A stretch of 64,000 bases of DNA, from the NCBI GenBank assembly GCA_050008535.1, contig JBEKML010000001.1, positions 194,246-258,245 of the forward strand. The letters run 5' to 3'. Position numbers and translations under genes: made by a program. This document shows positions 6,674 through 40,325 of this stretch, piece by piece (positions within the stretch are counted from its first letter, which is position 1; the number at the start of each line of letters is the position of its first letter). The stretch is from Minisyncoccia bacterium (GTDB lineage: Bacteria > Patescibacteriota > Minisyncoccia > UBA6257 > 2-01-FULL-56-20). Below the pieces are notes generated by a model that ran no database searches, had not been told where the DNA came from, and saw only the letters and a program-made list of their open reading frames with translations.

Positions 6674-8410
6674 ATGCCGAAAGTTTCCAATCAATCAATC
6701 GCCGAACTGCTCCGCGAGATAGGGGAATACCTTGCGATGCAAGAAGTGCCCTTCAAACCGCGCGCGTACGAGAAGGCGGCGGGCATCATTGAGGGGCTTG
6801 AAGAGGAAGTGGCGGATATCTATATGCGCGGTGGTTTAAAAGCGCTCGAGGAGATCCCGGGCGTAGGCGTTTCCATTGCAGAAAAGATAGAAGAATTTAT
6901 AAAGACCGGCAAGGTGAAGTATTACGAAGGCCTCAAAAAGAAGACCCCCGTTGATCTGGAGGGTTTGTCGCGGGTGGAAGGGCTTGGCCCGAAGTCGATC
7001 AAAAAGCTTTATCAAAAGCTAGGCATAAGCGATCTCGCCGACTTGGAAAAGGCGGCGAAAGCGGGAAAAATCGCAAAGCTTGAAGGATTCGGCGCGAGGA
7101 GCGAAGAAAAGATTTTGAAGGGCGTTGCATTCGCGAAAAGATCGGGCGGCAGGTTCGTACTTGGCTTTGTGACGCCGCAGATTCGCAGTATTGTATCGCA
7201 CCTTACGAAATTACCGGATGCTTCAAGGGTTACGGTCGCGGGCTCCGTGCGACGCAAAAAGGAAACTATCGGCGACGCGGATATCCTTATCGTTTCCGCG
7301 AAGCCAAAGATAGTTATGGACTACTTCGTTTCCATGCCGGAAGTGATGTCCGTGATCGCCCACGGCGATACAAAATCGTCGGTAAAGGTGAAGCCGGGAG
7401 TGAACGTTGATCTTCGCGTCGTGCCTGCGGAATCCTACGGTGCGGCGTTGAATTATTTCACCGGCTCAAAGGATCATAATGTCGCGTTGCGCCAGATTGC
7501 TGTGAAAAAGGGATGGAAACTGAACGAATACGGGCTTTTCTCCGTGAAGGGCGCCCGCGAAAAAACGATCGCCGGAAAAACAGAGGAGGAAATTTATAAA
7601 ATGTTCGGCATGGATTATATAGAACCGGAATTGCGCGAGAACACGGGGGAACTCCAGGCGGCGCAGGCGCACCGGCTGCCGAAGCTCATTGGATACGGCG
7701 ATCTGCAAGGTGATCTGCAGGTGCAGACCAATTGGACGGACGGCTCCGATTCCATTGAAGCAATGGCGAAGGCGGCCGCTGCGCAAGGGCTCGCCTATAT
7801 TGCGATCACCGATCATACGAAACGGCTTGCGATGACGCACGGTTTGGACGAAAAGCGGATCTTACAGCAGATGGCGGAGATAGACAGGCTCAACAAAAAA
7901 TTCGCGGGCAAAATAAAGATATTGAAAGGCAGTGAGTGTGACATTTTGAAGGATGGGACGCTTGACCTGCCCGCTTCGGTTTTGTCAAAGCTCGATGTGG
8001 TCGGCGCCGCGGTCCATTCGCATTTCAATCTCACGCGCGCCGAACAGACTGAGCGCATAAAACGGGCGATGGCGAACCCCAATGTTGACATTCTTTTCCA
8101 TCCAACGGGGCGCATTATCAATCGCCGCGAGGCGTACGAGGTGGATATGGAAGCGGTCATCGCGCACGCGAAGAAAACTGGCACCGTGCTTGAGATTGAC
8201 GCTTATCCCGACCGCGCCGATCTCAAAGATGAATATGTCCGCAAGTGCGTGGAAGCGGGCGTCAAAATGTCCATTGATTCCGACGCCCACTCGCCGACCC
8301 ATTTCCCCTATCTGGAATATGGTATCGCGCAGGCGCGCCGGGGATGGGCGGAGAAAGATGATATAATAAATGCCTGGCCGGTGGAAAAAATGAAAAAATC
8401 ATTAAAATAA
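6674..8410 (+). CDS. polX: DNA polymerase X family (Pol-beta-like core fused to a PHP phosphoesterase domain)
   Basis: HhH motifs, 'GSVRRKKETIGDADILI', and a C-terminal PHP 'ITDHT…'. Confidence 0.85.
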   Translation: MPKVSNQSIAELLREIGEYLAMQEVPFKPRAYEKAAGIIEGLEEEVADIYMRGGLKALEEIPGVGVSIAEKIEEFIKTGKVKYYEGLKKKTPVDLEGLSRVEGLGPKSIKKLYQKLGISDLADLEKAAKAGKIAKLEGFGARSEEKILKGVAFAKRSGGRFVLGFVTPQIRSIVSHLTKLPDASRVTVAGSVRRKKETIGDADILIVSAKPKIVMDYFVSMPEVMSVIAHGDTKSSVKVKPGVNVDLRVVPAESYGAALNYFTGSKDHNVALRQIAVKKGWKLNEYGLFSVKGAREKTIAGKTEEEIYKMFGMDYIEPELRENTGELQAAQAHRLPKLIGYGDLQGDLQVQTNWTDGSDSIEAMAKAAAAQGLAYIAITDHTKRLAMTHGLDEKRILQQMAEIDRLNKKFAGKIKILKGSECDILKDGTLDLPASVLSKLDVVGAAVHSHFNLTRAEQTERIKRAMANPNVDILFHPTGRIINRREAYEVDMEAVIAHAKKTGTVLEIDAYPDRADLKDEYVRKCVEAGVKMSIDSDAHSPTHFPYLEYGIAQARRGWAEKDDIINAWPVEKMKKSLK

Positions 8411-8931
8411 TGCCCACGCGTGTTCCTGCAGAATCTTTTGAGAAGCCTCCCACGAAAAAACAGGTGGTAGCGGGCTTCGTGGTCTACCGGCGGACAAGCG
8501 ACGGAATAAAATTTCTCCTCCTCTACCGCCGCGGCAATTACTGGAATTTTCCCAAGGGGCACTTCATGCCAGGCGAGCGGACGATGGACGTCGCCCTCCG
8601 CGAACTTGAGGAAGAAACGGGGATCAAAAAATCGGAATTGCGCATTATCCCGAACTTCCGCGCCTATGAACGTTTCTATTTCAAAGTTGGGAACCAGGGA
8701 ATTTACGACACCGTGATCTTGTTCCTCGCCGAAACACATCAAGTGGAGGTCCGCATCGTTCCACGCGAACACAGCGGTTATGGCTGGTTTCTCTATCACG
8801 ACGCCTTGAGTGTGGTCGGCAAGAAATACGGCGACACCCGCAAGGTGTTGCAACAGGCATCCAACTTCCTCCGTGCACGGAGCCGGGCGCACCGGCCGCC
8901 GCAGCGGCCCATGCATAGCGCGGGTCGTTGA
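8410..8931 (+). CDS. Nudix hydrolase
   Basis: Nudix box 'GHFMPGERTMDVALRELEEETGI'. Confidence 0.8.
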   Translation: MPTRVPAESFEKPPTKKQVVAGFVVYRRTSDGIKFLLLYRRGNYWNFPKGHFMPGERTMDVALRELEEETGIKKSELRIIPNFRAYERFYFKVGNQGIYDTVILFLAETHQVEVRIVPREHSGYGWFLYHDALSVVGKKYGDTRKVLQQASNFLRARSRAHRPPQRPMHSAGR

Positions 8932-11103: not shown

Positions 11104-11415
11104 GGGGACGCACTGGCTTTGATAAAGGTAAGCCGTGGGTTTGCGGGCCGAGGGCAACGACGTAACCGTTGCACAAATACAACTGACAACTCCAAAGTTG
11201 CAGCTCCGGCGTTCGCTTACGCGTAATGCCGGGATCGGCGAGTCCGGGTTCCTTGGGCTCATCACCGGTCTTATATAAGGGGACTAGCCGTAGCGGACGA
11301 TCCTATGCTGCGCGCGAAAATCAGGATCGCTTTGCTAGTTCCTAACTAGACACGCCCGTCGACGGCCCATGCGTACTACCTTTAGACGAGGGTTCGATTC
11401 CCTCCGTCTCCACAC
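11104..11415 (+). ncRNA. ssrA: tmRNA (transfer-messenger RNA)
   Basis: 5' GGGGACG pairs with 3' CGUCUCC to form the acceptor stem; the T-arm is GAGGG-UUCGAUU-CCCUC; an internal frame ends …AAPAFAYA-UAA; CCA is not encoded. Confidence 0.75.
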
Positions 11416-12488: not shown

Positions 12489-12920
12489 TTATTGTCCGGC
12501 GGCGAAGTTCGGAAGATCGGCGAAGAACTCATCCATGGTGGGATATATCTTTTCGCAGATGAGATAGAACACCTCCGGCTTTTCAATGGGACCGATGCTC
12601 ACCACCCTTTTCCCCATGCCGTAGCCCATGCCGGCTTCAAGGAGCGAAGAATGCCCTGTAGGCTGCAGGAGGATCACCACGTCGCTTCCTTTGAGTCCGG
12701 CGAGCTCGGCGTTAAAGACCCGCCTTATGTCCGGATCATTTTCCCAGTTCGCGAGCGCCTCGCCAAAGGTCTTTATTTCTTCAGCGACGGAGCGGCCCGT
12801 TGAAAGATTCGCTCCGCTTTCGAGGAAGGAATATACATCAAAGCCGCCCTTTGTAAGTTTCCCGGTCAGTTCTTCGACCACATCTCTGTTTCGCCAAGGA
12901 GAAGCAATAAAAAGTCTCAT
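12489..12920 (-). CDS. nucleoside 2-deoxyribosyltransferase-like (NDT/PF05014-like) protein
   Basis: N-terminal 'LFIASPW' and C-terminal 'VVILLQPTGHSSLLEAGMGYGMGKRVV' with the conserved Glu. Confidence 0.45.
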   Translation of the reverse strand: MRLFIASPWRNRDVVEELTGKLTKGGFDVYSFLESGANLSTGRSVAEEIKTFGEALANWENDPDIRRVFNAELAGLKGSDVVILLQPTGHSSLLEAGMGYGMGKRVVSIGPIEKPEVFYLICEKIYPTMDEFFADLPNFAAGQ

Positions 12921-12948: not shown

Positions 12949-13386
12949 CTAATCAACGGCACGCATCTCGCGCTCATGGGAGCGTTTTTTGATCGCTGCG
13001 CGCTTGTCGGATTTTTTCTTTGATTTGCCAAGGCCGAGTTCCAATTTTATGAAACCGTGCTTGAGGTAGGCGCGGAGGGGGATGAGCGTCTTGCCCCTTT
13101 CCTGAAGCGCGCCAGTCAAGCTTTTTACTTCCTCTTTGGTAAGCAAAAGCCGCCGCGAACGGTCCTCCTCGTAGTTTGCCGGGGCATTTTTGGGCTGGTA
13201 CGGGGGGATGTGGGCGTTCACAAGCCACGCCTCGCCGTTGCGGATCAAAACGCGCGCCCCCGCGATCTGAAAGTGGCCGCCTTTCGCGCTTTTCACTTCG
13301 TGCCCCAAAAGCGCTATGCCGGCCTCGTAGGTTTCCGCGATCTCGTAATCAAACCGCGCCCGGCGGTTCTCCGCGATGGTTTCCAT
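12949..13386 (-). CDS. smpB: SsrA-binding protein SmpB
   Basis: Contains 'IAENRRARFDYEIAETYEAGIALLGHEVKS…'; the start is assigned to the internal Met at 13386. Confidence 0.85.
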   Translation of the reverse strand: METIAENRRARFDYEIAETYEAGIALLGHEVKSAKGGHFQIAGARVLIRNGEAWLVNAHIPPYQPKNAPANYEEDRSRRLLLTKEEVKSLTGALQERGKTLIPLRAYLKHGFIKLELGLGKSKKKSDKRAAIKKRSHEREMRAVD

Positions 13387-13567: not shown

Positions 13568-15295
13568 ATGAAGGAAAAAATCGTCAAAATTCTGCAGGGC
13601 ATTATTGGTCAGGATGCGTTTCCTCCGGACGTTTCCGTTCCTGAAAAAGAGAATTTTGGCCATTATTCCACGAACATAGCTTTGCGGCTTTCAGGCGGTG
13701 CCGGGGGTGCCGAAAAACCGCTTGCGTGGGCGGAGCGGCTCGCGGCGGAGATCAGAAAAGCCGCACCCGCCGGATTTTTTGAAAAAGTGGAGGCCGCGCC
13801 GCCCGGCTTCATCAATTTTTGGCTGAGTCCGGAAACAATACAGAAGAAATTCGGCGAGATCTCCCGCGAGGAATCATTTGGAACGAACGGGAGCATGAAA
13901 GGAAAGACCGTTATGGTGGAGTTTACCGATCCGAATCCTTTCAAGCTGTTTCATATTGGGCATCTGATGAGTAATACGATCGGTGAATCGCTCGCGCGAC
14001 TCTATGAGGCAGCCGGTGCCACGGTGAGGCGGGCGGATTATTACGGCGACGTGGGCCTCCACATCGCGAAGGCAATATGGGGAATGGAACAATTGGCCGC
14101 CGAACGGCCGGATGAAAAAGATGACGCTGCTAAAAAAATGGATTTCCTCGGTAGGGCATATGCGCTTGGCTCGCGCGCCTACGAGGAGAAGCCGGAAAGC
14201 AAGGAAGCCATTATTGAACTGAATAAAAAAATATACGAACGGAGCGATGCGAAGGTGAACCAGTGGTACGATGCCGGACTCGCATGGAGCTTGGCATATT
14301 TTGAGACCGTCTTTAAGCGGCTTGGAACGAAATTTGATGATTATTTTCCCGAGAGCGATGTTGGTAAGGAGGGGCTCGATTTGGTTCTCGCGCACAAGGA
14401 CATTTTTATGGAAAGCGATGGCGCCATTGTGTTTCCCGGCGAACAATACGGTTTGCACACGCGCGTCTTCGTGAATGCGCAGGGATTGCCGACATATGAA
14501 GCGAAGGAGCTTGGTTTGAACAGGAAAAAATTCAAGCTGTATCCTCTCGATCTTTCCATTGTCGTCACCGGCAACGAGATTGTGGATTATTTCAAGGTGC
14601 TTTTGAAAGCGATGGAGCTTATCATGCCGGAGGTCGCGGCGAAAACAAAACACGTAGCGCACGGGATGTTGCGGCTTCCGACGGGTAAAATGTCCTCGCG
14701 CACGGGCGAGGTTGTCACGGCCGCATCGCTCATTGATGATGTGAAAGCAAAGCTTGCGGAGTATGCGAGCGGGAAAATGGACCTCACGGCCGATGAGCGC
14801 GCCGCCGCCGCCGAGGTCATCGCGATCGGCGCCGTCAAATATTCCATTTTGAAGCAGCATCCGGGCCAGGATATCGTTTTTGATTTCGGGAAATCGCTTT
14901 CATTCGAGGGCGATTCCGGACCATATCTGCAATATGCGTACGCGCGCCTGAGAAGCATTCTGCGCAAAGCGGGAGGGGTCGGCGATACGACCGGAACCGC
15001 CGAGGCCGCCGACTTCGGAACGCTCACTACCGAGAACGAACTTATGCTTATGCGGAAAATATTTGCGTTTCCCGATGCGGTGCGGCGGGCGCAAGAGATG
15101 CTTGCGCCGAGCGGGTTTGTGGCATATCTCTACCAACTCGCGGCGGTTGCGAACAAATTCTATGAAACAACACCGATCTTGAAAGATGAAAACGTCGCGC
15201 GCCGCAATGCGCGCCTCGCGCTCGCCGCAACCGCCGCGCGCGTCCTCAAAAAAGGACTTGCACTCCTTGGAATCGGAGCGCTTGAGAAAATATAG
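13568..15295 (+). CDS. argS: arginyl-tRNA synthetase
   Basis: Class I HIGH-type 'FHIGHLMSNTIG'; length and overall architecture fit. Confidence 0.9.
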   Translation: MKEKIVKILQGIIGQDAFPPDVSVPEKENFGHYSTNIALRLSGGAGGAEKPLAWAERLAAEIRKAAPAGFFEKVEAAPPGFINFWLSPETIQKKFGEISREESFGTNGSMKGKTVMVEFTDPNPFKLFHIGHLMSNTIGESLARLYEAAGATVRRADYYGDVGLHIAKAIWGMEQLAAERPDEKDDAAKKMDFLGRAYALGSRAYEEKPESKEAIIELNKKIYERSDAKVNQWYDAGLAWSLAYFETVFKRLGTKFDDYFPESDVGKEGLDLVLAHKDIFMESDGAIVFPGEQYGLHTRVFVNAQGLPTYEAKELGLNRKKFKLYPLDLSIVVTGNEIVDYFKVLLKAMELIMPEVAAKTKHVAHGMLRLPTGKMSSRTGEVVTAASLIDDVKAKLAEYASGKMDLTADERAAAAEVIAIGAVKYSILKQHPGQDIVFDFGKSLSFEGDSGPYLQYAYARLRSILRKAGGVGDTTGTAEAADFGTLTTENELMLMRKIFAFPDAVRRAQEMLAPSGFVAYLYQLAAVANKFYETTPILKDENVARRNARLALAATAARVLKKGLALLGIGALEKI

Positions 15296-15320
15296 GAAAA
15301 TCTGGTATTTTGAGAGAATA

Positions 15321-18300
15321 ATGGTTCATAACGCAAAGGAGAACGGTCCCGATGTGCCGAAGCTGGAGGAAAAGACCCTGGAATTTTGGGACAAACATAA
15401 AACCTTCGAGGAAAGCCTGGAGAAGACCAAAGATGGCAAGCCGTTCACTTTCTATGACGGGCCGCCTTTTGCGACCGGACTTCCGCACTACGGACACATT
15501 CTTGCTTCAACAATAAAAGACGTCGTGCCGCGGTACCAGACGATGAAGGGGCGCTTCGTGCGCCGGCGGTGGGGCTGGGATTGCCACGGCTTGCCGATCG
15601 AGGAGATCGTGGAGCGGAAGCTCGGCATCTCCGGTAAGAAACAGATCGAGGAGGTCGGCGTCAAAAAATTCAACGAGACCTGCCGGAGCATGGTCTTGGA
15701 ATACGCCGCGGAGTGGAAAAAAATGATCCATCGCGTCGCACGCTGGGTGGAATTCGACGATTCCTATAAAACGATGGATGCGGGCTATATGGAATCCGTC
15801 TGGTGGGCGTTCAAGGAGATCTACAAGAAGAAGCTCGTCTATCAAGGAAGGAAAGTGCTTTTGTATTGCCCGCGCTGCGAGACGCCGATATCAAATTTTG
15901 AAGTGGCAATGGACAACAGCTATAAAGACGTGACGGAGGAATCGGTAACGGTGAAATTTCATTTGAAACCGGGGCAAGCATTCGGCGAAGGCGGCAAATA
16001 TCAAACAAAAGATACTGCATACATTCTTTCGTGGACGACGACGCCGTGGACGCTGCCGGGGAATGCCGCGCTCTACGTTGCTAAGGATATTGTTTATGTT
16101 GCGCTGCGGGCCGAGGGTGCCCCCGGACTTTATATCCTTTCGCGCGAACGCGTGAAGGCCGTTTTCGGAGATCAGAAAATCGAGATCGTGCATGATGATA
16201 TTAAAGGGAATGATTTGGTCGGTTTGAAATACGAGCCGGTCTTTGATGTACCCGCAATGGCATCGGATAAAGCTTTCCGTGTTTCTCTTGCTGATTTTGT
16301 GGCGACGGACGAAGGGACGGGCGTTGTACACTCGGCGGTGATGTACGGAGAAGAGGATTATGAGCTTGGTGTGCGTGAGGGGCTGCCTACGGTGCCGCTC
16401 CTCGACGAAAAAGGAAAGTTTAATGAAACAGCGCCGGAGTTGGTCCGCGGGATGTATTTCAAGGATTCCGAAAAAATCATTAAAGACGACCTGCAAAATC
16501 GTGGATTGTTGTTCAAGCGCGAGATGCACGCGCACTCGTATCCGTTCTGCTGGCGTTGCGGCAACGTGCTTTTTTACAACGCGATTCCGGCGTGGTTCGT
16601 GAATGTCCAGAAAATAAAACCGCAGCTTTTGAAATCCAATAACAAGGAGATCAACTGGTTCCCGGGGCATTTGAAGCACGGGCGCTACGAAAAGAGCGTC
16701 GAGGCGGCGCCGGACTGGAACATTTCGCGCAATCGTTATTGGGGAAATCCTATCCCGGCGTGGAAGTGCGTTGGATGCGATCGCGAGGAAGTGGCGGGCA
16801 GCGTGGAAGAGCTGTCAAGGCTTGCTGGCAGCGCGAAGAACAACTACTGGGTGATGCGGCACGGCGAAGCGGAGAGCAACATCTTTCACATTCTTGATTC
16901 GGGGCAGAGAAAATATCTGCGCCTTACCCCGCGCGGCCGGAAGCAGGCAGAGGATTCGATCGCGCGCTTCAAAAAAGAACTTGCGAAGAGCGGCCAGAAG
17001 ATCGATCTTGTGATTTCCTCCGACATCACGCGCACTGCGGAAACGGAAGCAATCGTCGCTTCCGTGCTGGATGGCGAGAAGATAAAGTTCGACGGGCGGC
17101 TTGAAGAGATCCACCTGGGGCCGACGCTCACCGGCTATCGCGATAAGAAATATCTGAACCTTTTCCCGACGTATCAGGCGCGATTTGAGAAACAGCCGGA
17201 GAGCGGGGAGTCGTTGCGCGATCTTCGGGCGCGCATGTGGGGATTTCTCGCGGAGTGTGAGGAAAAACACAAGGGCAAGAACATTCTGCTCATCACCCAC
17301 GACTATCCGACGTGGATGCTTTTCCATGCGGCGGAAGGATGGAGCGAAGAGCGGGCGATCGAGGAAAAGGAGAAGCAAAAAGATGACTTCATCGGCTTTG
17401 CGGAGATTCGGAAGCTTGATTTGAAGATCGTCCCGCGGAATGACGGCGGCGAGGTGGATCTGCACCGACCGTATATTGATGACATAATCCTCACGTGCTC
17501 TGCGTGCGGCGGCGCGATGAGGCGGACGCCGGAGATCTTTGATTCGTGGATGGAGGCGGGGTCAATGCCGTTCGCCGAGTATCATTATCCGTTCGAAAAC
17601 AAAAAACTCTTTGAGAGCCGGTTTCCGGCGCAATTCGTGGCGGAATACATCGCGCAGACGAGGGCGTGGTTCTATGTGATGCACGTGATTTCGCTCGTCT
17701 TGTTCGGCAAAGCGCCTTTTGATAATGTCGTCACCACCGGCACGATCCTTGCGGAGGATGGTTCAAAAATGAGCAAATCAAAGGAGAATTTTCCCGATCC
17801 GAAACTTGTGATCGAAAAATATGGCGCCGACAGCTTACGGTTCTATCTTATGAACTCCGTCGTGATGCAGGCGGACAACCTCAATTTTTCCGAGAAAGCC
17901 GTGGAAAATATATATCGGAAAGCGGTCGTCATCCCTTGGAACGTCTGCAAATTCTTCACAACCTACATTGATCCTGAGGAATTTTCTCCGGGAAAGCAGT
18001 CCATCGCCGGTTCCGTAAATGTGCTTGACCGGTGGATCGAAGTGCGGACGGCGGAGCTTGTGGAGAACGTGACCGAATATCTCTCAGCGTATGACACCGT
18101 GCGTGCGACAAGGACGATCCAGGAATACATTGATGATCTTTCCACGTGGTACCTCCGCCGCAGCCGCAAACGGAAGGACGCCGCGTTCCCCGCCGCGCTC
18201 TATAAAAGTTTGCTTGTGTTAAGTAAGATCATTGCGCCTTTCATGCCGTTCCTTGCCGAGGAAATTTACGGGAAACTGAAGCCATACGGTCGCGGGGTTT

Positions 18301-18875
18301 CTTTACCGGAATCGGTACACCTTGCCGAATGGCCCGCTTCCGACGTTTCCCTCGGCGCGGAAGAAAAGAAATTTCTTGAAGCGATGGCCGAAGTGAGACG
18401 CTTGGCAAGTTTGGGCCTTGCAAAACGGGCGGAAGCGGGCGTGAAGGTCCGGCAGCCGCTTGCGAAACTCATCATCAAGAGCGAAACCATGAAATTATCG
18501 GCGGCGGAGGAATTGCGCGGCGTTTTGGCCGACGAGGTGAACGTAAAAGAGGTTGTATTTGATCAAGCAATTGAAGGCGAAGTTGAACTTGACACCGCGA
18601 TCACGCCGGAGCTTCGCGAGGAAGGCGTGCTCCGCGAAGTGGCGCGGATGGCGCAGGAGCTTCGCCAGAAAGCGGGGTTACAGCCGAAGGACAAAATCGT
18701 TCTTTTGCTTGATCTTCCCGCCGAAGTTAAAAACGTCGTCGCAAAGCACGAGGCGGCTCTGCGTTCCGGGGTAGGAGCAAAGCTTATTGAGTACGGCAAA
18801 TCGGAAAAGTTTTCTGCCGAAGAGGCGACCAAGCTTGGGGGGCAAGAGGTCTGGGTAGGACTGCGGAAGATTTAG
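15321..18875 (+). CDS. ileS: isoleucyl-tRNA synthetase (archaeal/eukaryote-like type) carrying an inserted histidine-phosphatase domain
   Basis: HYGHIL and KMSKS motifs, 'WNISRNRYWGNPIPAW', and 'DSWMEAGSMPF'; the start is taken at MVHNAKENG (15321) to avoid overlapping argS. Confidence 0.9.
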   Translation: MVHNAKENGPDVPKLEEKTLEFWDKHKTFEESLEKTKDGKPFTFYDGPPFATGLPHYGHILASTIKDVVPRYQTMKGRFVRRRWGWDCHGLPIEEIVERKLGISGKKQIEEVGVKKFNETCRSMVLEYAAEWKKMIHRVARWVEFDDSYKTMDAGYMESVWWAFKEIYKKKLVYQGRKVLLYCPRCETPISNFEVAMDNSYKDVTEESVTVKFHLKPGQAFGEGGKYQTKDTAYILSWTTTPWTLPGNAALYVAKDIVYVALRAEGAPGLYILSRERVKAVFGDQKIEIVHDDIKGNDLVGLKYEPVFDVPAMASDKAFRVSLADFVATDEGTGVVHSAVMYGEEDYELGVREGLPTVPLLDEKGKFNETAPELVRGMYFKDSEKIIKDDLQNRGLLFKREMHAHSYPFCWRCGNVLFYNAIPAWFVNVQKIKPQLLKSNNKEINWFPGHLKHGRYEKSVEAAPDWNISRNRYWGNPIPAWKCVGCDREEVAGSVEELSRLAGSAKNNYWVMRHGEAESNIFHILDSGQRKYLRLTPRGRKQAEDSIARFKKELAKSGQKIDLVISSDITRTAETEAIVASVLDGEKIKFDGRLEEIHLGPTLTGYRDKKYLNLFPTYQARFEKQPESGESLRDLRARMWGFLAECEEKHKGKNILLITHDYPTWMLFHAAEGWSEERAIEEKEKQKDDFIGFAEIRKLDLKIVPRNDGGEVDLHRPYIDDIILTCSACGGAMRRTPEIFDSWMEAGSMPFAEYHYPFENKKLFESRFPAQFVAEYIAQTRAWFYVMHVISLVLFGKAPFDNVVTTGTILAEDGSKMSKSKENFPDPKLVIEKYGADSLRFYLMNSVVMQADNLNFSEKAVENIYRKAVVIPWNVCKFFTTYIDPEEFSPGKQSIAGSVNVLDRWIEVRTAELVENVTEYLSAYDTVRATRTIQEYIDDLSTWYLRRSRKRKDAAFPAALYKSLLVLSKIIAPFMPFLAEEIYGKLKPYGRGVSLPESVHLAEWPASDVSLGAEEKKFLEAMAEVRRLASLGLAKRAEAGVKVRQPLAKLIIKSETMKLSAAEELRGVLADEVNVKEVVFDQAIEGEVELDTAITPELREEGVLREVARMAQELRQKAGLQPKDKIVLLLDLPAEVKNVVAKHEAALRSGVGAKLIEYGKSEKFSAEEATKLGGQEVWVGLRKI
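16845..17450 (+). other. histidine phosphatase (PGAM/SixA-like) domain embedded within ileS
   Basis: Contains 'VMRHGEAESN' (the RHG motif), 'SSDITRTAETEAI' (the second Arg motif), 'GESLRDLRAR', and 'LLITHDYP' (catalytic His). It sits between the IleRS motifs 'GSVEELSRL' and 'DLHRPYIDD'. Confidence 0.7.
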
Positions 18876-21871: not shown

Positions 21872-21897
21872 TTTTCTATTCTCTATTTATTATTTCG

Positions 21898-21981
21898 TGG
21901 GCAGGGAGGGACTTGAACCCTCATGACCTTGCGGCCACAGCGACCTGAACGCTGCGTGTCTGCCAGTTCCACCACCTGCCC
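21898..21981 (-). tRNA. tRNA-Leu (anticodon CAG), type II with a long variable arm
   Basis: Acceptor GGGCAGG/CCTGCCC, anticodon loop UUCAGGU, T-arm GAGGG-TTCAAGT-CCCTC. Confidence 0.8.
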
Positions 21982-25391: not shown

Positions 25392-26927
25392 CTACACTAT
25401 CTGGTCTAGTAAACTCCTCCCGCTCATGTCTGCGGGCTTTGGGATACCCATGGCTTCTAGGATGGTGGGGGCGACATCCGCGAGCGAGCCCGCTGTTTCT
25501 ACGTCGAGCGATTCGGCGTTCCCGAATTTTCTTCCTTTGTATTGTTCAACCACCAGGTAGAACGGCACGGGACTCGCGTCATGCTGGCTTTCGGGGAGTC
25601 CTGTCACGGGGCTGATCATCTCCTCAATGTTGCCGTGGTCGGCGGTGATAAAGAGAAGTGTGTCGGGATTTGTTGCCACTGTAAGGACGCGGGCGATCTC
25701 GCGGTCAATGACCTTCACGGCCTCAAGCGCGGCGTTATAGTCCGACGTGTGCGCGATCGTGTCGGGATTTGCGTAGTTTACCAGGATGAAATCGAAGGCT
25801 TTGTTCTGGATCGCTTCAACGAGGCGGTCGGTGACCGCCGTTGCCATCATTTCGGGATGTTCCTCGGGGTGCAGCCCGGAGGTTGAGGGGACAAGCGTCC
25901 GATACTCTCCCTGGAACGGCTGCTCACGGAGGCCATTGAAGAAATAAGTCACGTGCGCGTATTTATAGGTCTCCGCGAGCCGGAGCTGGCTCATGCCGCG
26001 GTCGGAGAATACTTTCCCGATCGGATTTTCCACCGCGTCGGCGGGGAAAGCGACGGGAACAGCGAACTGGTCGTCGTAGTGGCTCATGGTCGCGATATAA
26101 AGATTTTTAAAAGGCAACGTAGGGAATTTATCAAAGCCTTTCAGAATAAAGGAAGAAGCGAGCTGCCGGATACTGTCCTCGCGATAATTGAAAAAAACGA
26201 CCGCGTCGCCGTCCTGGATCTTTTTGTCGTCGGCAAAACGCATCGGCGGCAGATATTCCTCGGTGTTGCCCCCCTCATACGTCGTCTGGATGATGGGCAG
26301 GGGATCGTCCACCAAACGCCCCATCTGACCGGTTAGGGTTTGATACGTGGTTTCGGTCAGCCGCCAATTCTCATTGCGGTCCATCGCGTAATAGCGACCG
26401 ATGAGCGAAGCGAGATATTCACGAGGGACCTCGCTAAGAAAACTTTCAAAGGTGTGAGGCGGACTATCTTTCCCGTCCGCGAAAAGATGAAGGTTGATCT
26501 TCGGCACGTTCTCCTCGCGCGCCATTTTAATGAGCGCCTGGAGATGGTCAAGCGAGGCGTGCACGTTCGCTTTAGTAAGCAGCCCTGCAAAATTGATGGC
26601 AGAACCGTTCTCCCGCGCGTGTGCGCAGGCTGCTTTAAGCACCGGATTTTCAAAGAAGGTGCCGTCTTTGATGGCCATCGTGATCTTCGGGAAGTATTGA
26701 TAGAGCACTTTGCCGGCGCCAAGGGTAAGATGGCCCACTTCGCTGTTGCCCACTTCGCCCCAAGGGAGCCCTATCGCAATGCCCGATGCCTGCAAGCTTG
26801 TTACGGGATAATTTTGCCGGAGCCATTCAAAAGCCTGGGGTTTCACCACGTAAATGGGATTGGATTCGTTCTTGCGGCCGACGCCCCAGCCATCCAGGAC
26901 GATAAGCACTGCAGTTTTCTTCGCCAT
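25392..26927 (-). CDS. gpmI: 2,3-bisphosphoglycerate-independent phosphoglycerate mutase
   Basis: 511 aa with typical iPGM architecture. Confidence 0.9.
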   Translation of the reverse strand: MAKKTAVLIVLDGWGVGRKNESNPIYVVKPQAFEWLRQNYPVTSLQASGIAIGLPWGEVGNSEVGHLTLGAGKVLYQYFPKITMAIKDGTFFENPVLKAACAHARENGSAINFAGLLTKANVHASLDHLQALIKMAREENVPKINLHLFADGKDSPPHTFESFLSEVPREYLASLIGRYYAMDRNENWRLTETTYQTLTGQMGRLVDDPLPIIQTTYEGGNTEEYLPPMRFADDKKIQDGDAVVFFNYREDSIRQLASSFILKGFDKFPTLPFKNLYIATMSHYDDQFAVPVAFPADAVENPIGKVFSDRGMSQLRLAETYKYAHVTYFFNGLREQPFQGEYRTLVPSTSGLHPEEHPEMMATAVTDRLVEAIQNKAFDFILVNYANPDTIAHTSDYNAALEAVKVIDREIARVLTVATNPDTLLFITADHGNIEEMISPVTGLPESQHDASPVPFYLVVEQYKGRKFGNAESLDVETAGSLADVAPTILEAMGIPKPADMSGRSLLDQIV

Positions 26928-30831: not shown

Positions 30832-31447
30832 AGGAACCATCGCCGTAGTGATCTCCGCCTTCATCCTCTTTGTGGCGGTATATGGTTCATATATGCCGAT
30901 GCGGAAGGCCCAGATGTTTATCGGTACGCTTCAGAGTTTCCAGACGCAACCTCCTACCTCTCTCCAGAACCTTGAAGATCGCCTTTCGATCCCATTGGAC
31001 TATCCTTCTCCCATCGGCCAGGAGGAGCTCGTCCGAAATACGGCGAACAGCGTTTTGTCGCTGATCCAGCGGGGGACCGACGCGACGACTACCGCCGCCC
31101 TTATTAATTTCCTGGATGGCTATTATGACCCGATCATCGCGCAGGGCAAGGGGATGAGTTTTGGCCAGGACGTTTACCTTGAAGGAGCGGTCAATGAGAT
31201 TGCTTTTGTCCGGACCGGCGATCCGAGTTATCTGGGGAGGTCGCTGCAGTATTATCGCCAAGGTAATGCGCTCGGGCCCAATCGCCCACAGCCGCTCTAT
31301 GGGCTGTTTGATGTATATCGCACAATAGGCGACGTGACCGACACGCAAGCGATCGCGCAAAAGATCCTTACCAATTGGCCGATGGATCAGAGCATCCCTG
31401 GGGCCCTCGCGCAGTTTTTGGCAACGGTCAAGGCGGTGAAGAAATAG
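30815..31447 (+). CDS. membrane-anchored/secreted hypothetical protein
   Basis: N-terminal TM helix; no recognisable domain. Confidence 0.4.
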
Positions 31448-31454
31448 CGACACC

Positions 31455-32474
31455 ATGAAAAAAGCGCTCGTCACGGGGGTGACGGGCCAGGACGGAAGCT
31501 ACCTGGCCGAATTTTTGCTTAAAAAAGGATACGAGGTGCACGGCATCATGCGCCGGGCATCCACGTTCAATACCGGGCGATTGGAACAGATCTACCAGGA
31601 TCCGCACGTTGTGGGCGGGCGCTTTCATCTTCACTACGGCGATCTTGCGGATGCGAACACCGTGAGGCGGCTTCTCTATAAGATCCAGCCGGACGAAATT
31701 TATAACCTTGGCGCGCAATCGCACGTCCGCGTTTCTTTTGATATTCCCGAATACACCGCGAATATCACGGGACTCGGGGTATTGCGCATGCTGGAGGCGA
31801 CGAAGGATTTTGAGGAGCACACGGGGAAGAAAGTGAAGTTCTATCAGGCCTCAAGCTCGGAAATGTTCGGCGCGGCGCCCCCGCCGCAGAACGAGAACAC
31901 CCCCTTCCATCCGCGGAGTCCGTACGGTGTGGCAAAGGTATTCGCGTTTGATACGGTCAGGAACTACCGTGAGGCGTACGGGATCTTTGCCGCGAACGGG
32001 ATCCTTTTCAATCATGAATCGGAGCGCCGCGGCGAGACGTTCCTCACGCGAAAAGTAACCCGGGGGATCGCGCGGATCCTCGCGGGCCTGGATAAGAAAA
32101 TATACTTGGGGAACTTGGAGGCGCGGCGCGACTGGGGCTATGCGCCGGAATACGTGGAGGCAATGTATCTCATACTCCAGCAGCCCGAGCCGGATGATTT
32201 TGTGATCGGTACGGGGAAATCCCACTCGGTGAAAGAATTCGTTGAGGCCGCGTTCCGCGCGGTGGGCATTGAGGATTGGAAAAAATACGTTGAAATTGAT
32301 CCGCGCTATTACCGCCCCTCGGAGGTTGATAACTTGGTTGCGGACGCGACGAAGGCGAAGGAAAAGTTGGGCTGGCAGCCGAAGGTTGATTTTGAAACGC
32401 TTGTCAAAAAAATGGTGAAGCACGATCTTTTACAACTGGGGCTGCGCGACAAAGCGGAGGAGATAAAATTGTAA
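31455..32474 (+). CDS. gmd: GDP-mannose 4,6-dehydratase
   Basis: Begins '[36 protein letters not shown]'. Confidence 0.9.
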
Positions 32475-32549
32475 GGAGGCATTAACAGGGGACAAGGCCG
32501 CACGGACGTCGTGAGGCCTTGGTTATTTCTGAAGGTCTAGATTGGCAGA

Positions 32550-33578
32550 TCATTCTACGATGCAGTCCCATGTTTGGACGAGTGGTGCGAGCTCTTGCCA
32601 GAAGCTCTCTTCGATCTCCGCCTCGCCCGCAGATGTGTTTTCCAGGACTTGTTCGGGTGTCCGCGCGCCCGGTATCACGAGCCCAAAATGCGGATTGCGG
32701 ACGCACCACTGGATCGCTGCTGCCGCCAGCGGGATTTGATACCGCTGGCAGAGCGCTTTGATCTCTTCAATGCGCGCGATGAGTTCGGGGTTGTCGAAGC
32801 GACGTTCCTGGTAGCGTATTTCTTTTTGGAATCCGGTTGCAAGGATACCGCGCTCAAGTGCGTTCGCCGCAATGAGCCCCGTGCCGGACTTTTCTGCGGC
32901 GGGAAGAATATGGTCACGCGCCGACTGGTTGATCAAGCTCCATGCGCCGACCACGATCGCGGTGTTGAACTTCCCTGTAGAGATATAGGTTGTGGCAGTC
33001 TTGGAATCGTTCGCTCCGACGCTCACGAAATCGATCAAGCTCTGTTCTTGGAGCGATCGCATGGCGCCAAAAACACCTCGACTGCCCATGACCCTTTGGA
33101 TCGACTGGCCCATCGGATCGTGCAGGTGTACGAGACGAAACCGTTCGATCCCCAGCCGCTTCTGGCTTCCTTCGAAGCTGCGCATGGCGGCATCATAGGA
33201 AAAATCGTAATCGTCTCCTGGACGGAGATGCCCGATCTTTGTGGCCACCACCACCTCGTCTTGGAGCCCCGGATGTGTTCTGAAGGCCTGTCGTAGCGCT
33301 TCGCCAACGGTTTCTTCGGCAAATCCTCGCCCGTACCAAGGAGCGGTGTCGATGAATCGGATCCCTGCTTCGAGTGCCGCGAGGACGGTCGCTATGCCCA
33401 AGTCTCGATCCATGTAGTTTTTCCAGTTTGGACCTGGGCTATATTGTTCTATGGTTAGGTTCTGATCGGGGATACCGAGAGAACCCGTACCGAGCCCGAC
33501 GATGGGCACGGTGATATTTGTACCCGGCAATAACTTTGTCTGCATTGGGTGTCTCCTTTCTCCCTTCGTTTTATTCAT
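32550..33578 (-). CDS. aldo/keto reductase
   Basis: AKR-fold motifs. Confidence 0.8.
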   Translation of the reverse strand: MNKTKGERRHPMQTKLLPGTNITVPIVGLGTGSLGIPDQNLTIEQYSPGPNWKNYMDRDLGIATVLAALEAGIRFIDTAPWYGRGFAEETVGEALRQAFRTHPGLQDEVVVATKIGHLRPGDDYDFSYDAAMRSFEGSQKRLGIERFRLVHLHDPMGQSIQRVMGSRGVFGAMRSLQEQSLIDFVSVGANDSKTATTYISTGKFNTAIVVGAWSLINQSARDHILPAAEKSGTGLIAANALERGILATGFQKEIRYQERRFDNPELIARIEEIKALCQRYQIPLAAAAIQWCVRNPHFGLVIPGARTPEQVLENTSAGEAEIEESFWQELAPLVQTWDCIVE

Positions 33579-33626
33579 GCTGTTTATATCAATACACCAA
33601 TCGCAAAATTAGTCAATGAACACGGC

Positions 33627-33655
33627 ATTGACTAGAGCTACACTTTCATATATAA
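33627..33655 (+). promoter_or_regulatory. sigma70-like promoter TTGACT-N17-TATAAT, followed by a conserved leader (GCCAGCAGT…CTTGAGA…GAGAGGAGA)
   Basis: Seen directly in the sequence. Confidence 0.5.
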
Positions 33656-33707
33656 TTGCGCCAGCAGTCTTGAGATTTGACTTCGAGACTCGAGAGGAGA
33701 GCACGGC

Positions 33708-34493
33708 ATGCAGAAGGATTTTCTTGAGTTTGCCATTGAGGTGGCGGCGAAAGCGGGCGATGTGCTCTTGAAATATCATCGCCTGAGCCTTCGCGCGGAA
33801 TGGACCACCGCTACTCACTTTAAGACGCAGGCCGACGACGAGAACGACCGCCTTGCTCGTGAAGCGATTCGGGAAGCGTTTCCTTGTCATGGCATCCATT
33901 CGGAAGAAGGGGCGCCCGTGAATATGGGAAGCTGGTTCCGTTGGTATGTGGACGGCGTTGACGGGACGATCGGATTCCTATCGGGCCACACTAACCACTT
34001 CGCGTTTTCCATGGGGCTTGGCGACAGAAGCCGGCCGATCGTCGGCGTGGTCAACGCCGTTGGCCGCGGAGAGCTCTATACCGCCAAGCAAGGCGGTGGC
34101 GCGTTCTGCAACGGCAACCAGATTCACGTTTCCGACCTCGAGGACCTTCATCGGGTACTCATGGGCGTGGATTCGGGCAAGCACCATCGCACCGCGCATC
34201 TGCGCTACATGGAGCGCTTGCTCCAGCCGGACGGCATCGCGTGCCCAATGTGCACGGGCTGCGCGTCGGTGCCGCTTTGTCTTGTTGCGAGCGGCGTTCT
34301 GCACGCATATCTCGCGACGTCACTCGAGCCTGAAGACATGGCCGCTGCGGTCATCTTGATCCGCGAAGCGGGCGGGCTCGTAACCAATCTCGATGGGAAA
34401 GAGTGGCGGCTGGGAGACAGTTCGATCTTAGCAGCCAATCCTGTCTTACACGGGAAGCTGTTCCAGCTTCTTGGCCTGGGGAGGGCGTTGTGA
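33708..34493 (+). CDS. inositol monophosphatase family protein (IMPase/SuhB/CysQ-like)
   Basis: Contains 'WYVDGVDGTIGF' and 'HSEEG'. Confidence 0.75.
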   Translation: MQKDFLEFAIEVAAKAGDVLLKYHRLSLRAEWTTATHFKTQADDENDRLAREAIREAFPCHGIHSEEGAPVNMGSWFRWYVDGVDGTIGFLSGHTNHFAFSMGLGDRSRPIVGVVNAVGRGELYTAKQGGGAFCNGNQIHVSDLEDLHRVLMGVDSGKHHRTAHLRYMERLLQPDGIACPMCTGCASVPLCLVASGVLHAYLATSLEPEDMAAAVILIREAGGLVTNLDGKEWRLGDSSILAANPVLHGKLFQLLGLGRAL

Positions 34494-35062
34494 TCAACAA
34501 ACTTGTCGCGCCGGTGGCCGGCGCAATTGAAGAAGTGCTTCGGAAGTGGGGGAAGAGGGCGTTCTTCCAGAACTTCACGCTTCCAAATGGGGCGCCGCAC
34601 CGTTTCCTGGCGTTTGAGGGGATGACTACTCCTGCGATTATCCTCGCGATCACGTCGGATCAGCGGGTGATCGCCGTGCGGCAGTTCCGCTACGGCGCGA
34701 GCGCCTTCGTGCTGGAGCTTCCTGGGGGGTGTCCCGATCGGGAAGGAGAGCCTCCGGAAGAAACCCTTCGGAAAGAGCTCCGGCAGGAAACGGGGTATGA
34801 GCCGGGCAAGGTGATTGAGGTCGGAGGGCCGATGTGGTTCGAGCCGGCGTCGTACCGGACGCGATACCGCTGTTTTCTCGCCCTGGATTGCGTTCATGTC
34901 GGCGAGCCGGAGCCGGACGAGGCGGAGATCATGCGGGTGGAACTCTACCCGCTTCAGGAATGGATCGTCATGGTCGGCGACGGCACGGTCAACGACGACA
35001 AGACGATCGCCGTTACTATGCGGGGCCTCTCCCATCTCGGCTGGAAGCTCACGCTTACTTAG
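34490..35062 (+). CDS. Nudix hydrolase (ADP-ribose / GDP-sugar pyrophosphatase-like)
   Basis: Contains 'GGCPDREGEPPEETLRKELRQETGYE'; a GTG start overlaps the upstream stop. Confidence 0.7.
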   Translation: MINKLVAPVAGAIEEVLRKWGKRAFFQNFTLPNGAPHRFLAFEGMTTPAIILAITSDQRVIAVRQFRYGASAFVLELPGGCPDREGEPPEETLRKELRQETGYEPGKVIEVGGPMWFEPASYRTRYRCFLALDCVHVGEPEPDEAEIMRVELYPLQEWIVMVGDGTVNDDKTIAVTMRGLSHLGWKLTLT

Positions 35063-35155
35063 CGGCGCGTTTCCGGCCGCTTGAGACCTGTGTGGCGCAG
35101 GCTCGTATTCATCAACTAATGCAACGATAGCCAGGGTCGACGCCACCGACCCTGA

Positions 35156-36181
<1,026 letters not shown>

Positions 36182-36193
36182 TTATTTTCCGGC

Positions 36194-37093
36194 ATGAAAA
36201 AAACCATCGTTCTTTTGCGCGGCGGTTTGGGGAATCAGATGTTCCAGTATGCTGCGGGCCTGGGCATTGCGAAGAAAAACGGCAGCCGCCTTATGCTTGA
36301 CACCACCCTCCTGAATGACCGCTTTCCCCGGAGGCAGATCACGTTCCGGACCTATGATCTTGATATATTTGCGCTTACGCCCGAGTTCACCGCCCTGTCA
36401 AAAATTTCTTCCAGGGTTCCTGTGCCGGGATTATGGGCCGCCGCTGATCTTGTGTTGATAAAGCTCCGGGACGCGCTCGGTATTCGGCGGATTGTAAAGG
36501 AGAAACAAGAGCACTCCTTTGATCCAAACATATCCCGTGCCGGAGGCGATGTTTTTCTCTGGGGGTTCTGGCAGACACCGAAGTATTTCACGGAAGCCGA
36601 AATGGAGGTGCGCGATGCATTCCGCTTCCGCAACGCGCTCCAGGGAAAAGCGGCGGATATCGCCCGCGCGATCGAAAAGACCAATGCTGTCGCGCTCCAC
36701 GTGCGCCGCGCCGACTATCTCCTTCCAAAATATAAAGGCCTCTACGGCGACACCGACTCCGGTTATTACGAAAAGGCGGTGCGGTACATCGGAGATCGCG
36801 TGAATAATCCTGCATTATTCGTTTTCTCCGACGACATCGCCTGGTGTAAAGAACATTTTCATTTTTCATTTCCCACAACTTTCGTGGATCGTTCGTCCGA
36901 TGGCCCAGGAGGCGGTTTCCATCTGCAGCTCATGTCCCTTTGCAAGCACAATATCATCACGAACAGCTCGTTCTCCTGGTGGGGGGCGTGGCTCAATCGC
37001 AATCATAAAAAGATCGTCATCGCGCCGAAGCGGTGGACGCTTGCGTCCGGCGACGACGAAGATATTATTCCGGAGCGTTGGATAAAACTATAG
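36194..37093 (+). CDS. alpha-1,2-fucosyltransferase (GT11)
   Basis: Contains 'LLRGGLGNQMFQYAAG'. Confidence 0.75.
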   Translation: MKKTIVLLRGGLGNQMFQYAAGLGIAKKNGSRLMLDTTLLNDRFPRRQITFRTYDLDIFALTPEFTALSKISSRVPVPGLWAAADLVLIKLRDALGIRRIVKEKQEHSFDPNISRAGGDVFLWGFWQTPKYFTEAEMEVRDAFRFRNALQGKAADIARAIEKTNAVALHVRRADYLLPKYKGLYGDTDSGYYEKAVRYIGDRVNNPALFVFSDDIAWCKEHFHFSFPTTFVDRSSDGPGGGFHLQLMSLCKHNIITNSSFSWWGAWLNRNHKKIVIAPKRWTLASGDDEDIIPERWIKL

Positions 37094-37103
37094 CTATGGT
37101 ATT

Positions 37104-37997
37104 ATGACGGGCATGGACATAATGCGTCATCCGTATTTCAACACTCCGCGGCTCGTGGTGAATACGCGCGCGGCGCTTTTGGGATTCGCGACGGGGAAGT
37201 TCACATTGACGGAATGTTTATTCCTTTTGGCGAGAAAATTCAAAAACCCGGATACCCAGCGGAAGTTCATGGATTTGCAAAGGCGGGGCATAGCGAAGTT
37301 CATCGGCGAAGGCGGGAGCGTGAACCTTTACGGGCATGCGGTGTATCCTGTCACGGGGGACCCGGAGGAATCATTTTATTTGATTGACCAGATCGTCCGC
37401 CAGAACCAATATCGGACGGAGCTTATAAAAGACGGAGATGTGGTCATAGACGCCGGAGCCAACAAGGGAATTTTCAGCATCAAAGTTGCCCATGAGTTCC
37501 CTCACACCAAGGTCTATGCCTTTGAGCCGATCCACGAAACGGTGGTGGTGCTTAAAAAGAACGCGGCGCCCTATCCGAATATATTCTGTTTTGAGCTCGG
37601 CTTGGGAGACGTAAAAGCCTCAAAACCCATGATGGTGGATCCCGCGGGGCCCGACGGGAACCGGATGGCGGATGCGATCATTGATATGCCGGAAGACCCC
37701 GGCAGGAACGAAACGAGGAATGTTCCCGTGACGACGATCGATGATTTTGTAGCGGAGCACTCCATTCTCCACGCCGACTTTATAAAAATGGACGTTGAGG
37801 GATACGAGGGAAAAATATTGCTCGGCGCGGCAAAGACCATACGGCGCTACAAGCCGACCATAGTGATGTCCGCCTACCACAGCAAGCACGACGTGCAAGA
37901 ATTGCCCAGGATATTGGAAAGCATACAGCCGGGGTATCGCGTAAAGCTCGAAAAAAGGAACGAACTTGACTTTGTGTGCCAATATCCCAAACGATGA
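37104..37997 (+). CDS. FkbM-family methyltransferase
   Basis: Contains 'VIDAGANKGIFSIKVAHEFPHTKVYAFEP'. Confidence 0.75.
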   Translation: MTGMDIMRHPYFNTPRLVVNTRAALLGFATGKFTLTECLFLLARKFKNPDTQRKFMDLQRRGIAKFIGEGGSVNLYGHAVYPVTGDPEESFYLIDQIVRQNQYRTELIKDGDVVIDAGANKGIFSIKVAHEFPHTKVYAFEPIHETVVVLKKNAAPYPNIFCFELGLGDVKASKPMMVDPAGPDGNRMADAIIDMPEDPGRNETRNVPVTTIDDFVAEHSILHADFIKMDVEGYEGKILLGAAKTIRRYKPTIVMSAYHSKHDVQELPRILESIQPGYRVKLEKRNELDFVCQYPKR

Positions 37998-38824: not shown

Positions 38825-38838
38825 GGGTATTGTTATCA

Positions 38839-39417: not shown

Positions 39418-39438
39418 CGGGATGGCGGCGAAGCACGT

Positions 39439-40218: not shown

Positions 40219-40325
40219 ATAATTTGACACCACCGCCATAGAATGCTATTCTATGGCCAGTAGTCTTTAGTTGAGAGCAAGCTGTTTTTCTAATCTGAAT
40301 CGTCTGAAGCGACGGAGGTGTTCCG

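Follow-up and report, generated by a model that had tools for sequence, protein, structure and literature searches.

An apparently active histidine phosphatase lodged within the housekeeping isoleucyl-tRNA synthetase of a Minisyncoccia bacterium and of many other Patescibacteria

Class Ia aminoacyl-tRNA synthetases hold folded insertion domains, such as the CP1 editing domain and the leucine-specific domain of LeuRS, in their connective-peptide (CP) loops, with the Rossmann fold left undisturbed; these domains serve aminoacylation or editing itself. A curated precedent for an isoleucyl-tRNA synthetase (IleRS) with an additional enzymatic domain is the NCBIfam family NF040702 (isoleucine--tRNA ligase, N-acetyltransferase domain-containing). 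Histidine phosphatases, for their part, have entered a protein of tRNA biology in TFIIIC tau55 and a bifunctional RNase H/acid phosphatase of the Rv2228c type (NF005567), both of them end-to-end fusions with other partners, neither being an aminoacyl-tRNA synthetase. Here, we describe a 64,000-nucleotide window from a Minisyncoccia bacterium, one of the ultra-small Patescibacteria (contig JBEKML010000001.1, positions 194,246 to 258,245) whose ileS gene (15321..18875, + strand; 1184 aa plus stop) encodes a type-2 IleRS interrupted by a 208-residue histidine-phosphatase domain. Unlike the CP1 and leucine-specific domains, this insert comes from an unrelated enzyme superfamily and has an active site of its own.

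Both halves of the protein belong to well-known families; their combination is new. An earlier note, drawn up from the DNA letters alone, had stated that no synthetase with an embedded phosphatase was known to it, and full-text literature searches agree, since they returned no paper describing an IleRS, or any aminoacyl-tRNA synthetase, with an embedded histidine phosphatase. Insert-bearing proteins themselves are abundant in databases, with automatic PF00300 tags and the names 'class I tRNA ligase family protein' or 'isoleucyl-tRNA synthetase'; the former is all that the NCBI pipeline assigns because these IleRS carry whole-enzyme insertions. Taken as a whole, the observations are, in our estimation, rather probably best explained by an intact phosphatase built into the housekeeping IleRS and acting with it as one unit.

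An open reading frame (ORF) finder reported a single long ORF of 1229 aa (15186..18875, +), which has 45 surplus codons (15186..15320) 5′ of the true ileS start, an extension that overlaps the argS end. We placed the start at the ATG at 15321 because argS ends at 15295 and because P0001, an entry of a public protein collection that is 100% identical to the window IleRS and lies on an independent contig, has 1184 aa; the length of 1185 aa given earlier is one residue too long. The ileS equivalog TIGR00392 was satisfied with 809 bits (cut-off 621.4) in two stretches divided by the insert, and Pfam returned tRNA-synt_1 in two pieces (aa 20-501 and after ~720), with His_Phos_1 between them, followed by Anticodon_1 (E 6e-25) and DUF5915. 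In an alignment of 60 IleRS homologues, the HYGH class I signature (aa 56-59; 15486..15497, +) and the threonine-rich WTTTPWT motif of the CP1 editing domain (aa 238-244; 16032..16052, +) were invariant, the KMSKS class I signature (aa 816-820; 17766..17780, +) was invariant or nearly so, and both Cys4 sites were present and invariant. These elements, that is, HYGH, KMSKS, the CP1 editing motifs, two Cys4 zinc sites and the C-terminal DUF5915 domain, are shared with type-2 ('eukaryote-like') IleRS such as Priestia megaterium IleRS2 (PmIleRS2; 8C8U/8C8V) and the enzymes of T. thermophilus (1ILE) and yeast (8WND), with which the window IleRS is collinear except for the insert. PmIleRS2 (8c8v), yeast IleRS (8wnd) and 1ILE are also its nearest solved structures, and none of them has such a domain. 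The models for MupA and MupB (NF000257 and NF000258) matched with 681 and 657 bits, below their cut-off of 1900; the window protein is of the same type-2 class as MupA and MupB but is not one of those proteins. On sequence grounds, this establishes the window gene as the orthologous housekeeping type-2 ileS of Patescibacteria (Minisyncoccia/Parcubacteria-type), with its predicted synthetic, editing and anticodon-binding parts intact, and from orthology and the positional conservation of argS-ileS we infer that the enzyme aminoacylates tRNA-Ile. An AlphaFold2 (AF2) model of the full-length protein had a predicted local distance difference test score (pLDDT) of 83.6 and a predicted template modelling score (pTM) of 0.71, with the blocks of the insert at pLDDT 74-95.

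The inserted domain comprises aa 505-712 (16833..17456, +), as supported by Pfam, by profile comparison to the Protein Data Bank (PDB), and by the AF2 and Foldseek results, with the Pfam His_Phos_1 core at aa 510-678 (16848..17354, +). It is a single contiguous in-frame insertion rather than a neighbouring gene, as had been proposed, with His_Phos_1 falling between the two tRNA-synt_1 pieces. Upstream of it lies the first CxxC of the host zinc knuckle (CVGC, aa 483-486; 16767..16778, +), which aligns with C461/C464 of 1ile and 'CEGC' of PmIleRS2; downstream lies the second (CSAC, aa 726-729; 17496..17507, +), whose aligned counterparts are C502/C504 in 1ile and 'CPVC' in PmIleRS2. C483, C726 and C729 are invariant in the 60-homologue alignment. 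The alignment of these Cys pairs supports the earlier statement that other IleRS have only a short zinc-knuckle loop at this site: solved IleRS have a loop of ~4 residues where the window IleRS has a 208-residue second enzyme, and in the yeast alignment, which passes from query 504/chain 494 to query 712/chain 498, ~205 residues stand in place of a ~3-residue loop. When aa 506-711 were removed and the remainder was searched against solved structures, the insert-deleted protein was collinear with PmIleRS2 417-574 and 1ile 419-574, with the deletion point in a 4-residue gap. In PmIleRS2, residues 40-168 and 513-632 make up the HUP core (PMC10485003). Because this core resumes at 513, the site (~residue 480) falls ~30 residues short of it, within the connective-peptide region. 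The insert is located after the editing domain, in the loop that separates the CxxC halves of the zinc knuckle. Connective-peptide nomenclature for class I synthetases is treated in PMC10485003 and PMC11685878; the latter divides ScIleRS into CP core, editing domain (ED/CP1), CP2 and CP3, and we use the zinc knuckle of the CP2/CP3 region as a working label for the site. An intein, a self-splicing element or another mobile insertion was considered and rejected, as Pfam returned no Hint/intein or homing-endonuclease domain but only His_Phos_1 in the inserted block, which folds as one PGAM domain in the model.

Several lines of comparison identify the insert as a bona fide branch-1 histidine phosphatase. 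PF00300 (His_Phos_1; cut-off 21.7 bits) was matched with 88.1 bits (E 7.7e-25) in the context of the whole protein and with 93.1 bits (E 2.2e-26) on the interval 16845..17450. A single-sequence search of solved proteins placed the insert nearest to PspA, PhoE and CobC, and a profile built from 30 insert sequences retrieved PhoE (1ebb) from the PDB with E 1.3e-29, PspA with 1e-27 and CobC with 5e-23. In the profile alignment, the RHG, SSxxR, LREIxLG and xxH motifs are in register with PhoE, so that the RHG, R and H residues fall on the catalytic positions of histidine phosphatases, as the first reading had required. An AF2 model of the insert alone (pLDDT 93.8, pTM 0.90) is predicted to adopt the PGAM-type alpha/beta fold: Foldseek matched it to PspA, GpgP, PhoE and HFP at E 1e-11 to 1e-13 (PspA 4e-13), with a probability of 1.00 and TM-scores of 0.66-0.73 to PspA, GpgP and PhoE, and TIGAR was matched as well. 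Of these, GpgP is the mycobacterial glucosyl-3-phosphoglycerate phosphatase and HFP a histidine-family phosphatase of the riboflavin pathway. The Rv2228c-type model NF005567 aligned to the insert over its phosphatase half (48.6 bits; cut-off 326).

The earlier description of the domain as 'PGAM/SixA-like' is right about the superfamily but too loose, given that the nearest relatives are PhoE, PspA, CobC and GpgP and that the scores for cofactor-dependent phosphoglycerate mutase (dPGM) and SixA fall short of their cut-offs. Matches were below threshold for SixA (TIGR00249; 23.5 vs 74.5 bits), the phosphoserine phosphatase PspA (NF045917; 38.3 vs 350), the alpha-ribazole phosphatase CobC (TIGR03162; 44.5 vs 162.9), GpmB (NF002901; 41.3 vs 261) and dPGM_arch (NF038349; 58.4 vs 225). 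The insert is therefore a phosphatase of the small PhoE/PspA/CobC/GpgP type, neither a mutase nor a SixA. It shares with PhoE, PspA, CobC and GpgP (Rv2419c) the fold, the R-H/R/E/H constellation and a size of ~200 aa, but it has H-x-x-P-x-W where phosphatases of the type of PhoE (YhfR of Geobacillus stearothermophilus) have the usual H-G, and, whereas those four are free-standing metabolic enzymes, members of the insert family lie within IleRS or immediately upstream of it.

dPGM_arch is the top NCBIfam match by score, and some stand-alone homologues of the insert (see below) bear the submitters' name 'putative phosphoglycerate mutase', which could be taken to mean that the cell's cofactor-dependent mutase has been fused to its IleRS. 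We find this barely credible: the dPGM_arch and GpmB scores are far from their cut-offs, the profile and fold neighbours are phosphatases, and dPGM structures match the N-terminal half of the insert profile only. Moreover, the window has a gene for a cofactor-independent phosphoglycerate mutase, which is not part of the feature (iPGM; 25392..26927, −; Pfam iPGM_N E 7.9e-54, Metalloenzyme E 6.4e-62), so a glycolytic role for the insert is unnecessary.

All motifs quoted in the earlier note are present in frame, namely RHG at 513-515, R571 in SSDITRT, E630/R638 in GESLRDLRAR and H660 in THDYP. We followed the active-site residues through 116 close homologues and through the 95 insert-bearing representatives of clusters at 50% identity that are introduced below. 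The RHG motif (R513, nucleophile H514, G515; 16857..16865, +) has its R and H invariant in 116/116 and retained in 92-93 of the 95 representatives, the second phosphate-pocket arginine R571 (SSDxxR; 17031..17033, +) is found in 116/116 and 93/95, and the second catalytic histidine H660 (H-x-x-P-x-W; 17298..17300, +) in 116/116 and 94/95. S567, E630 and R638 are likewise invariant in the close homologues, the latter two marking the ends of the GES...R motif (17208..17234, +). The list of signature motifs was correct and needs one refinement, which concerns the general acid: E596 (RLxEIxLG, here RLEEIHLG; 17106..17108, +), which is E in 111 and D in 5 of the 116 and aligns with the Glu of PhoE 'LREIHLG', is the likelier candidate, and the Glu of 'GES' would be a conserved pocket or structural motif.

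The full R, H, R, E/D, H set is intact in 90 of the 95 representatives, at a mean pairwise domain identity of 30%. That 90/95 keep the set at this divergence argues for purifying selection on the catalytic residues and for retained catalysis, and the insert is apparently an active histidine phosphatase, with the pattern expected of a working enzyme. One or more catalytic residues have been lost in the remaining five (P0132, P0185, P0222, P0256 and P0274), as would suit a fold kept as a ligand sensor, structural spacer, pseudo-enzyme or regulator; given the 90 representatives with all five residues, such a non-catalytic module is scarcely probable.

An intact catalytic set would also be expected if the domain were a protein phosphatase that acts on IleRS itself or on another translation factor and thereby reverses an inhibitory phosphorylation. 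Kinases that inhibit synthetases have precedents in HipA, whose target is GltX, and HipT, whose target is TrpS, and the histidine-phosphatase fold is able to act on phosphoproteins, as in PGAM5, Sts-1 and SixA. If the phosphatase were tethered to the protein on which it acts, its obligate linkage to a single synthetase would be accounted for. The insert, however, has no specific likeness to SixA (23.5 vs 74.5 bits) or to any other subfamily of protein phosphatases, kinases directed at IleRS are not known, and the conserved neighbourhood contains no kinase gene; we thus regard this alternative as improbable.

The insertion is not peculiar to this genome. As the earlier note had suggested might be found, related genomes carry the same insert: PF00300 was detected in 120/120 of the best homologues (100% down to 54% identity; 1120-1240 aa), which, where named, derive from metagenome-assembled genomes of Minisyncoccia, Paceibacterota, Jorgensen-, Lipton-, Doudna- and Saccharibacteria. 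When 1.84 billion cluster representatives (50% identity) were searched exhaustively with HMMER, 95 of the best 150 carried the insert, at identities as low as 37%; the remaining 55 (950-1080 aa) were without it. Contigs of GTDB genomes, one per species, were searched by means of the flanking IleRS motifs, and 37 of the best 80 loci had the insert, including complete chromosomes of 0.83-0.89 Mb and genomes named as Zambryskii-, Colwell-, Taylor-, Lipton-, Sungii- and Doudnabacteria. In total, more than 200 homologues from NCBI, JGI, ENA and Logan, complete chromosomes of 0.83-0.90 Mb among them, have the same architecture. The insertion is thus inherited across a large radiation and is a clade-wide trait in many Patescibacteria. 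An assembly chimera or frameshift artefact has a negligible probability in view of these homologues, of the identical P0001 on an independent contig and of a GC content that is continuous across the insert (0.54-0.58).

Neighbor joining (NJ) gave star-like topologies for the IleRS core as well as for the phosphatase domain. Fitch parsimony counted 39 gain/loss changes on 209 tips, which on such a tree is an upper bound only, and insert and core distances were moderately correlated (r = 0.38). What can safely be said is that the module is accessory and was lost or moved repeatedly. A supposed case of two ileS copies on one contig (L072 and the contig of P0012, both 163,037 bp) was dismissed, as the two have no blastn similarity and differ in GC content (47% vs 53%). 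L072 and L081 are unrelated Patescibacteria contigs from different assemblies that are both 163,037 bp long by coincidence, the ileS of one being insert-less and that of the other insert-bearing.

In genomes of the Staskawiczbacteria type the phosphatase is a separate gene. At L038 (Candidatus Staskawiczbacteria, 662-kb contig) and L040, argS is followed by a free-standing 195-aa His_Phos gene and then by an insert-less ileS of ~946 aa, and at L082-L085, reached by looking up three stand-alone proteins, the order is smpB(−)...argS, His_Phos, ileS (947-987 aa), one of these loci having an extra ORF between. These insert orthologues of 188-200 aa (L038 2989..3576; L040 2995..3582; L082-L085 6001..~6600) thus lie between argS and an insert-less ileS, and across the split loci the distance from the phosphatase stop to the ileS start is 1-5 nt. 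Stand-alone homologues form 445 clusters (186-231 aa; where named, mostly Staskawiczbacteria or Parcubacteria). They score 183-205 bits on a hidden Markov model of the insert, equal to genuine inserts, with which they have the N-x-Y...RHGEA and H-(E/Q)-x-P-x-W motifs in common. They came to light via L038 and L040, two GTDB loci at which just the phosphatase portion of the query matched; a search of a 5.8-billion-protein set with the insert by itself returned IleRS fragments and no stand-alone relatives. Tentatively, the stand-alone clade seems nested within the inserts, which would imply fission.

The surroundings of the gene are conserved as well. In the window, the order is smpB(−), argS (13568..15295, +; Pfam Arg_tRNA_synt_N, tRNA-synt_1d, DALR_1), insert-bearing ileS, trpS(−) and RNase J(−), with identical synteny in L081, and the arrangement (smpB)-argS-[His_Phos]-ileS recurs in L081-L085 and L038/L040. 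Because the window shares the smpB-argS-ileS-trpS-RNase J synteny, with the phosphatase inside ileS or directly in front of it, the insert-bearing gene is the positional orthologue of an ordinary ileS.

The phosphatase has also been accommodated elsewhere in the synthetase. In P0206, P0250, P0268, P0271 and P0277 it is found ~75 residues after KMSKS instead of in the zinc knuckle, both sites are occupied, once each, in P0160, P0255 and P0257, and P0217 and P0272 have two copies in tandem. P0250 (L086 5001..8822) is encoded on a 268-kb contig of 42% GC and adjoins uvrB and uvrC. Since the same pairing recurs in four architectures (as a neighbouring gene 1-5 nt upstream, in the zinc-knuckle loop, at the post-KMSKS site and in two copies), phosphatase and IleRS most likely act as one physical unit, as judged by comparative genomics, and a chance association is unlikely given three fusion geometries plus the adjacent gene.

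From the chemistry of the family, H514 would attack a phosphomonoester to form a phospho-histidine intermediate, the phosphate being held by R513, R571 and H660; E596 would protonate the leaving group, after which water would free the phosphate. As to the substrate, we can offer a guess, and a rather unlikely one: a nucleotide-type 2′/3′-phosphate that is handled beside the synthetase, with a phosphorylated or pyrophosphorylated 3′-CCA end of tRNA that blocks charging, or an adenine-nucleotide by-product, as candidates. The guess rests on three considerations: the business end of IleRS is the A76 ribose of the tRNA, a NUDIX and a phosphatase domain in one protein would suit the stepwise removal of a 3′-pyrophosphate, and toxins that pyrophosphorylate the CCA end, and thereby block aminoacylation, are documented (bioRxiv 10.1101/2021.04.30.441581; PMC11559606; PMC11782079).

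A number of observations weigh against a phosphatase that works on RNA in concert with IleRS. The nearest characterised relatives have small metabolites as their substrates (phosphoserine, glucosyl-3-phosphoglycerate, alpha-ribazole-P, a riboflavin intermediate), not RNA, the predicted pI of the domain is ~7.2 and thus not basic as in many RNA-binding modules, and the PADLOC defence models gave no match for the phosphatase. Insert-bearing and insert-less IleRS are interleaved at 55-68% identity, as in L036 and L048, which are both labelled Liptonbacteria, and the insert-less loci have no phosphatase gene within ~1.5 kb of ileS. Because relatives with IleRS this similar lack the domain, the synthetase can do without it.

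These points bear on the main rival, in which a broad-specificity small-molecule phosphatase (e.g. for phosphoserine, a sugar phosphate or a 5′-nucleotide) merely rides on ileS, an essential, highly and constitutively expressed gene of a reduced genome, and is mechanistically unconnected with aminoacylation. The solved proteins nearest to it in sequence and fold (PhoE, PspA, CobC, GpgP, HFP) are metabolite phosphatases, the domain is dispensable and patchy, and the mixture of other enzyme modules in related IleRS could reflect permissive loops. On the other hand, at least three independent phosphatase-IleRS architectures plus duplications are hard to explain without a functional link, and the equivalog cut-offs for PspA, CobC, GpmB and dPGM are all missed. 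We consider metabolic moonlighting possible, though on balance unlikely; the protein phosphatase and pseudo-enzyme readings above and the antidote reading below are lesser rivals.

Further enzyme modules occur in related IleRS. Pfam detected NUDIX near the start of CP1 in P0183 and P0185, GNAT beside the phosphatase in P0263 and P0274, a serine alpha/beta-hydrolase in P0271 and a weak P-loop AAA_18/33 (kinase-like) match in P0218. Modules of these kinds would fit a theme of nucleotides or RNA ends. P0247 has ~440 extra residues without a Pfam match. None of these proteins belongs to the IleRS-with-GNAT family NF040702, which represents a different lineage: against its cut-off of 1999 bits, the window IleRS scored 274.7, P0274 292 and P0263 257, and as far as the scores show NF040702 has no phosphatase.

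A bolder extension of one-unit action, which we hold to be quite unlikely, is that in many Patescibacteria IleRS serves as the chassis for a built-in kit that repairs tRNA ends. On IleRS itself, the acceptor end would be cleared of blocking groups by the embedded phosphatase, joined in relatives by the NUDIX, P-loop kinase-like, esterase and GNAT modules; the groups in question might be toxSAS-type 3′-phosphate or 3′-pyrophosphate, the cyclic phosphate left by tRNases, or N-acyl-aminoacyl esters. If this were true, the translation of these epibionts would be resistant to tRNA-targeting toxins of hosts, competitors and abortive-infection systems.

The same collection of modules could be read as an embedded antidote, in which the phosphatase and, in relatives, the GNAT, hydrolase, NUDIX and kinase-like modules inactivate an IleRS inhibitor or antimetabolite at its target. 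Acetyltransferases, esterases, kinases and phosphatases, all found inserted in related IleRS, are classic antibiotic-modifying classes. To our knowledge, however, none of the known IleRS inhibitors has a terminal phosphomonoester, which counts against this reading, and the case for it is purely circumstantial. IleRS is often the target of natural products, e.g. mupirocin, yet type-2 IleRS is already intrinsically mupirocin-tolerant (PMC10485003). Overall, an antidote appears highly improbable.

Aminoacyl-tRNA synthetases are among the best-studied enzymes, and the catalytic domains known to have been added to them deal with editing. A second, unrelated enzyme that is kept in IleRS across a large bacterial radiation would point to an undescribed activity tied to the charging of tRNA-Ile. 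A blocked tRNA 3′ end or alarmone-like nucleotide as its substrate would add a new layer of translation quality control or toxin resistance in bacteria that belong to the candidate phyla radiation, whose biology is largely inferred from genomes. The natural split, deletion and double-domain variants offer clean experimental handles. Even if the role of the domain were purely metabolic, the zinc-knuckle loop and the post-KMSKS region would be permissive sites for whole-enzyme insertion, useful for engineering.

Elsewhere in the window, a tmRNA gene (11104..11413, +; tag DNSKVAAPAFAYA) and smpB (12949..13386, −) are located a little upstream of argS-ileS, with a 143-aa ORF without a Pfam match (12489..12920, −) between a Cache-domain protein and smpB. 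The gene for a stand-alone NUDIX hydrolase (8410..8931, +) directly follows a PolX-type DNA polymerase (6674..8410, +; pol beta thumb/palm plus PHP), and a NUDIX gene is also found at the equivalent neighbourhood position in L082. The window NUDIX was rejected as a specific relative of the IleRS-embedded NUDIX domains, as the similarity is confined to the Nudix box. A tRNA-Leu(CAG) gene is situated at 21897..21981 (−). Finally, a long run of same-strand ORFs extends over ~31000..64000; in the ORF list, their N-termini resemble NAD-dependent sugar epimerases/dehydratases, nucleotidyltransferases and glycosyltransferases, and the region is probably a cell-surface polysaccharide cluster.

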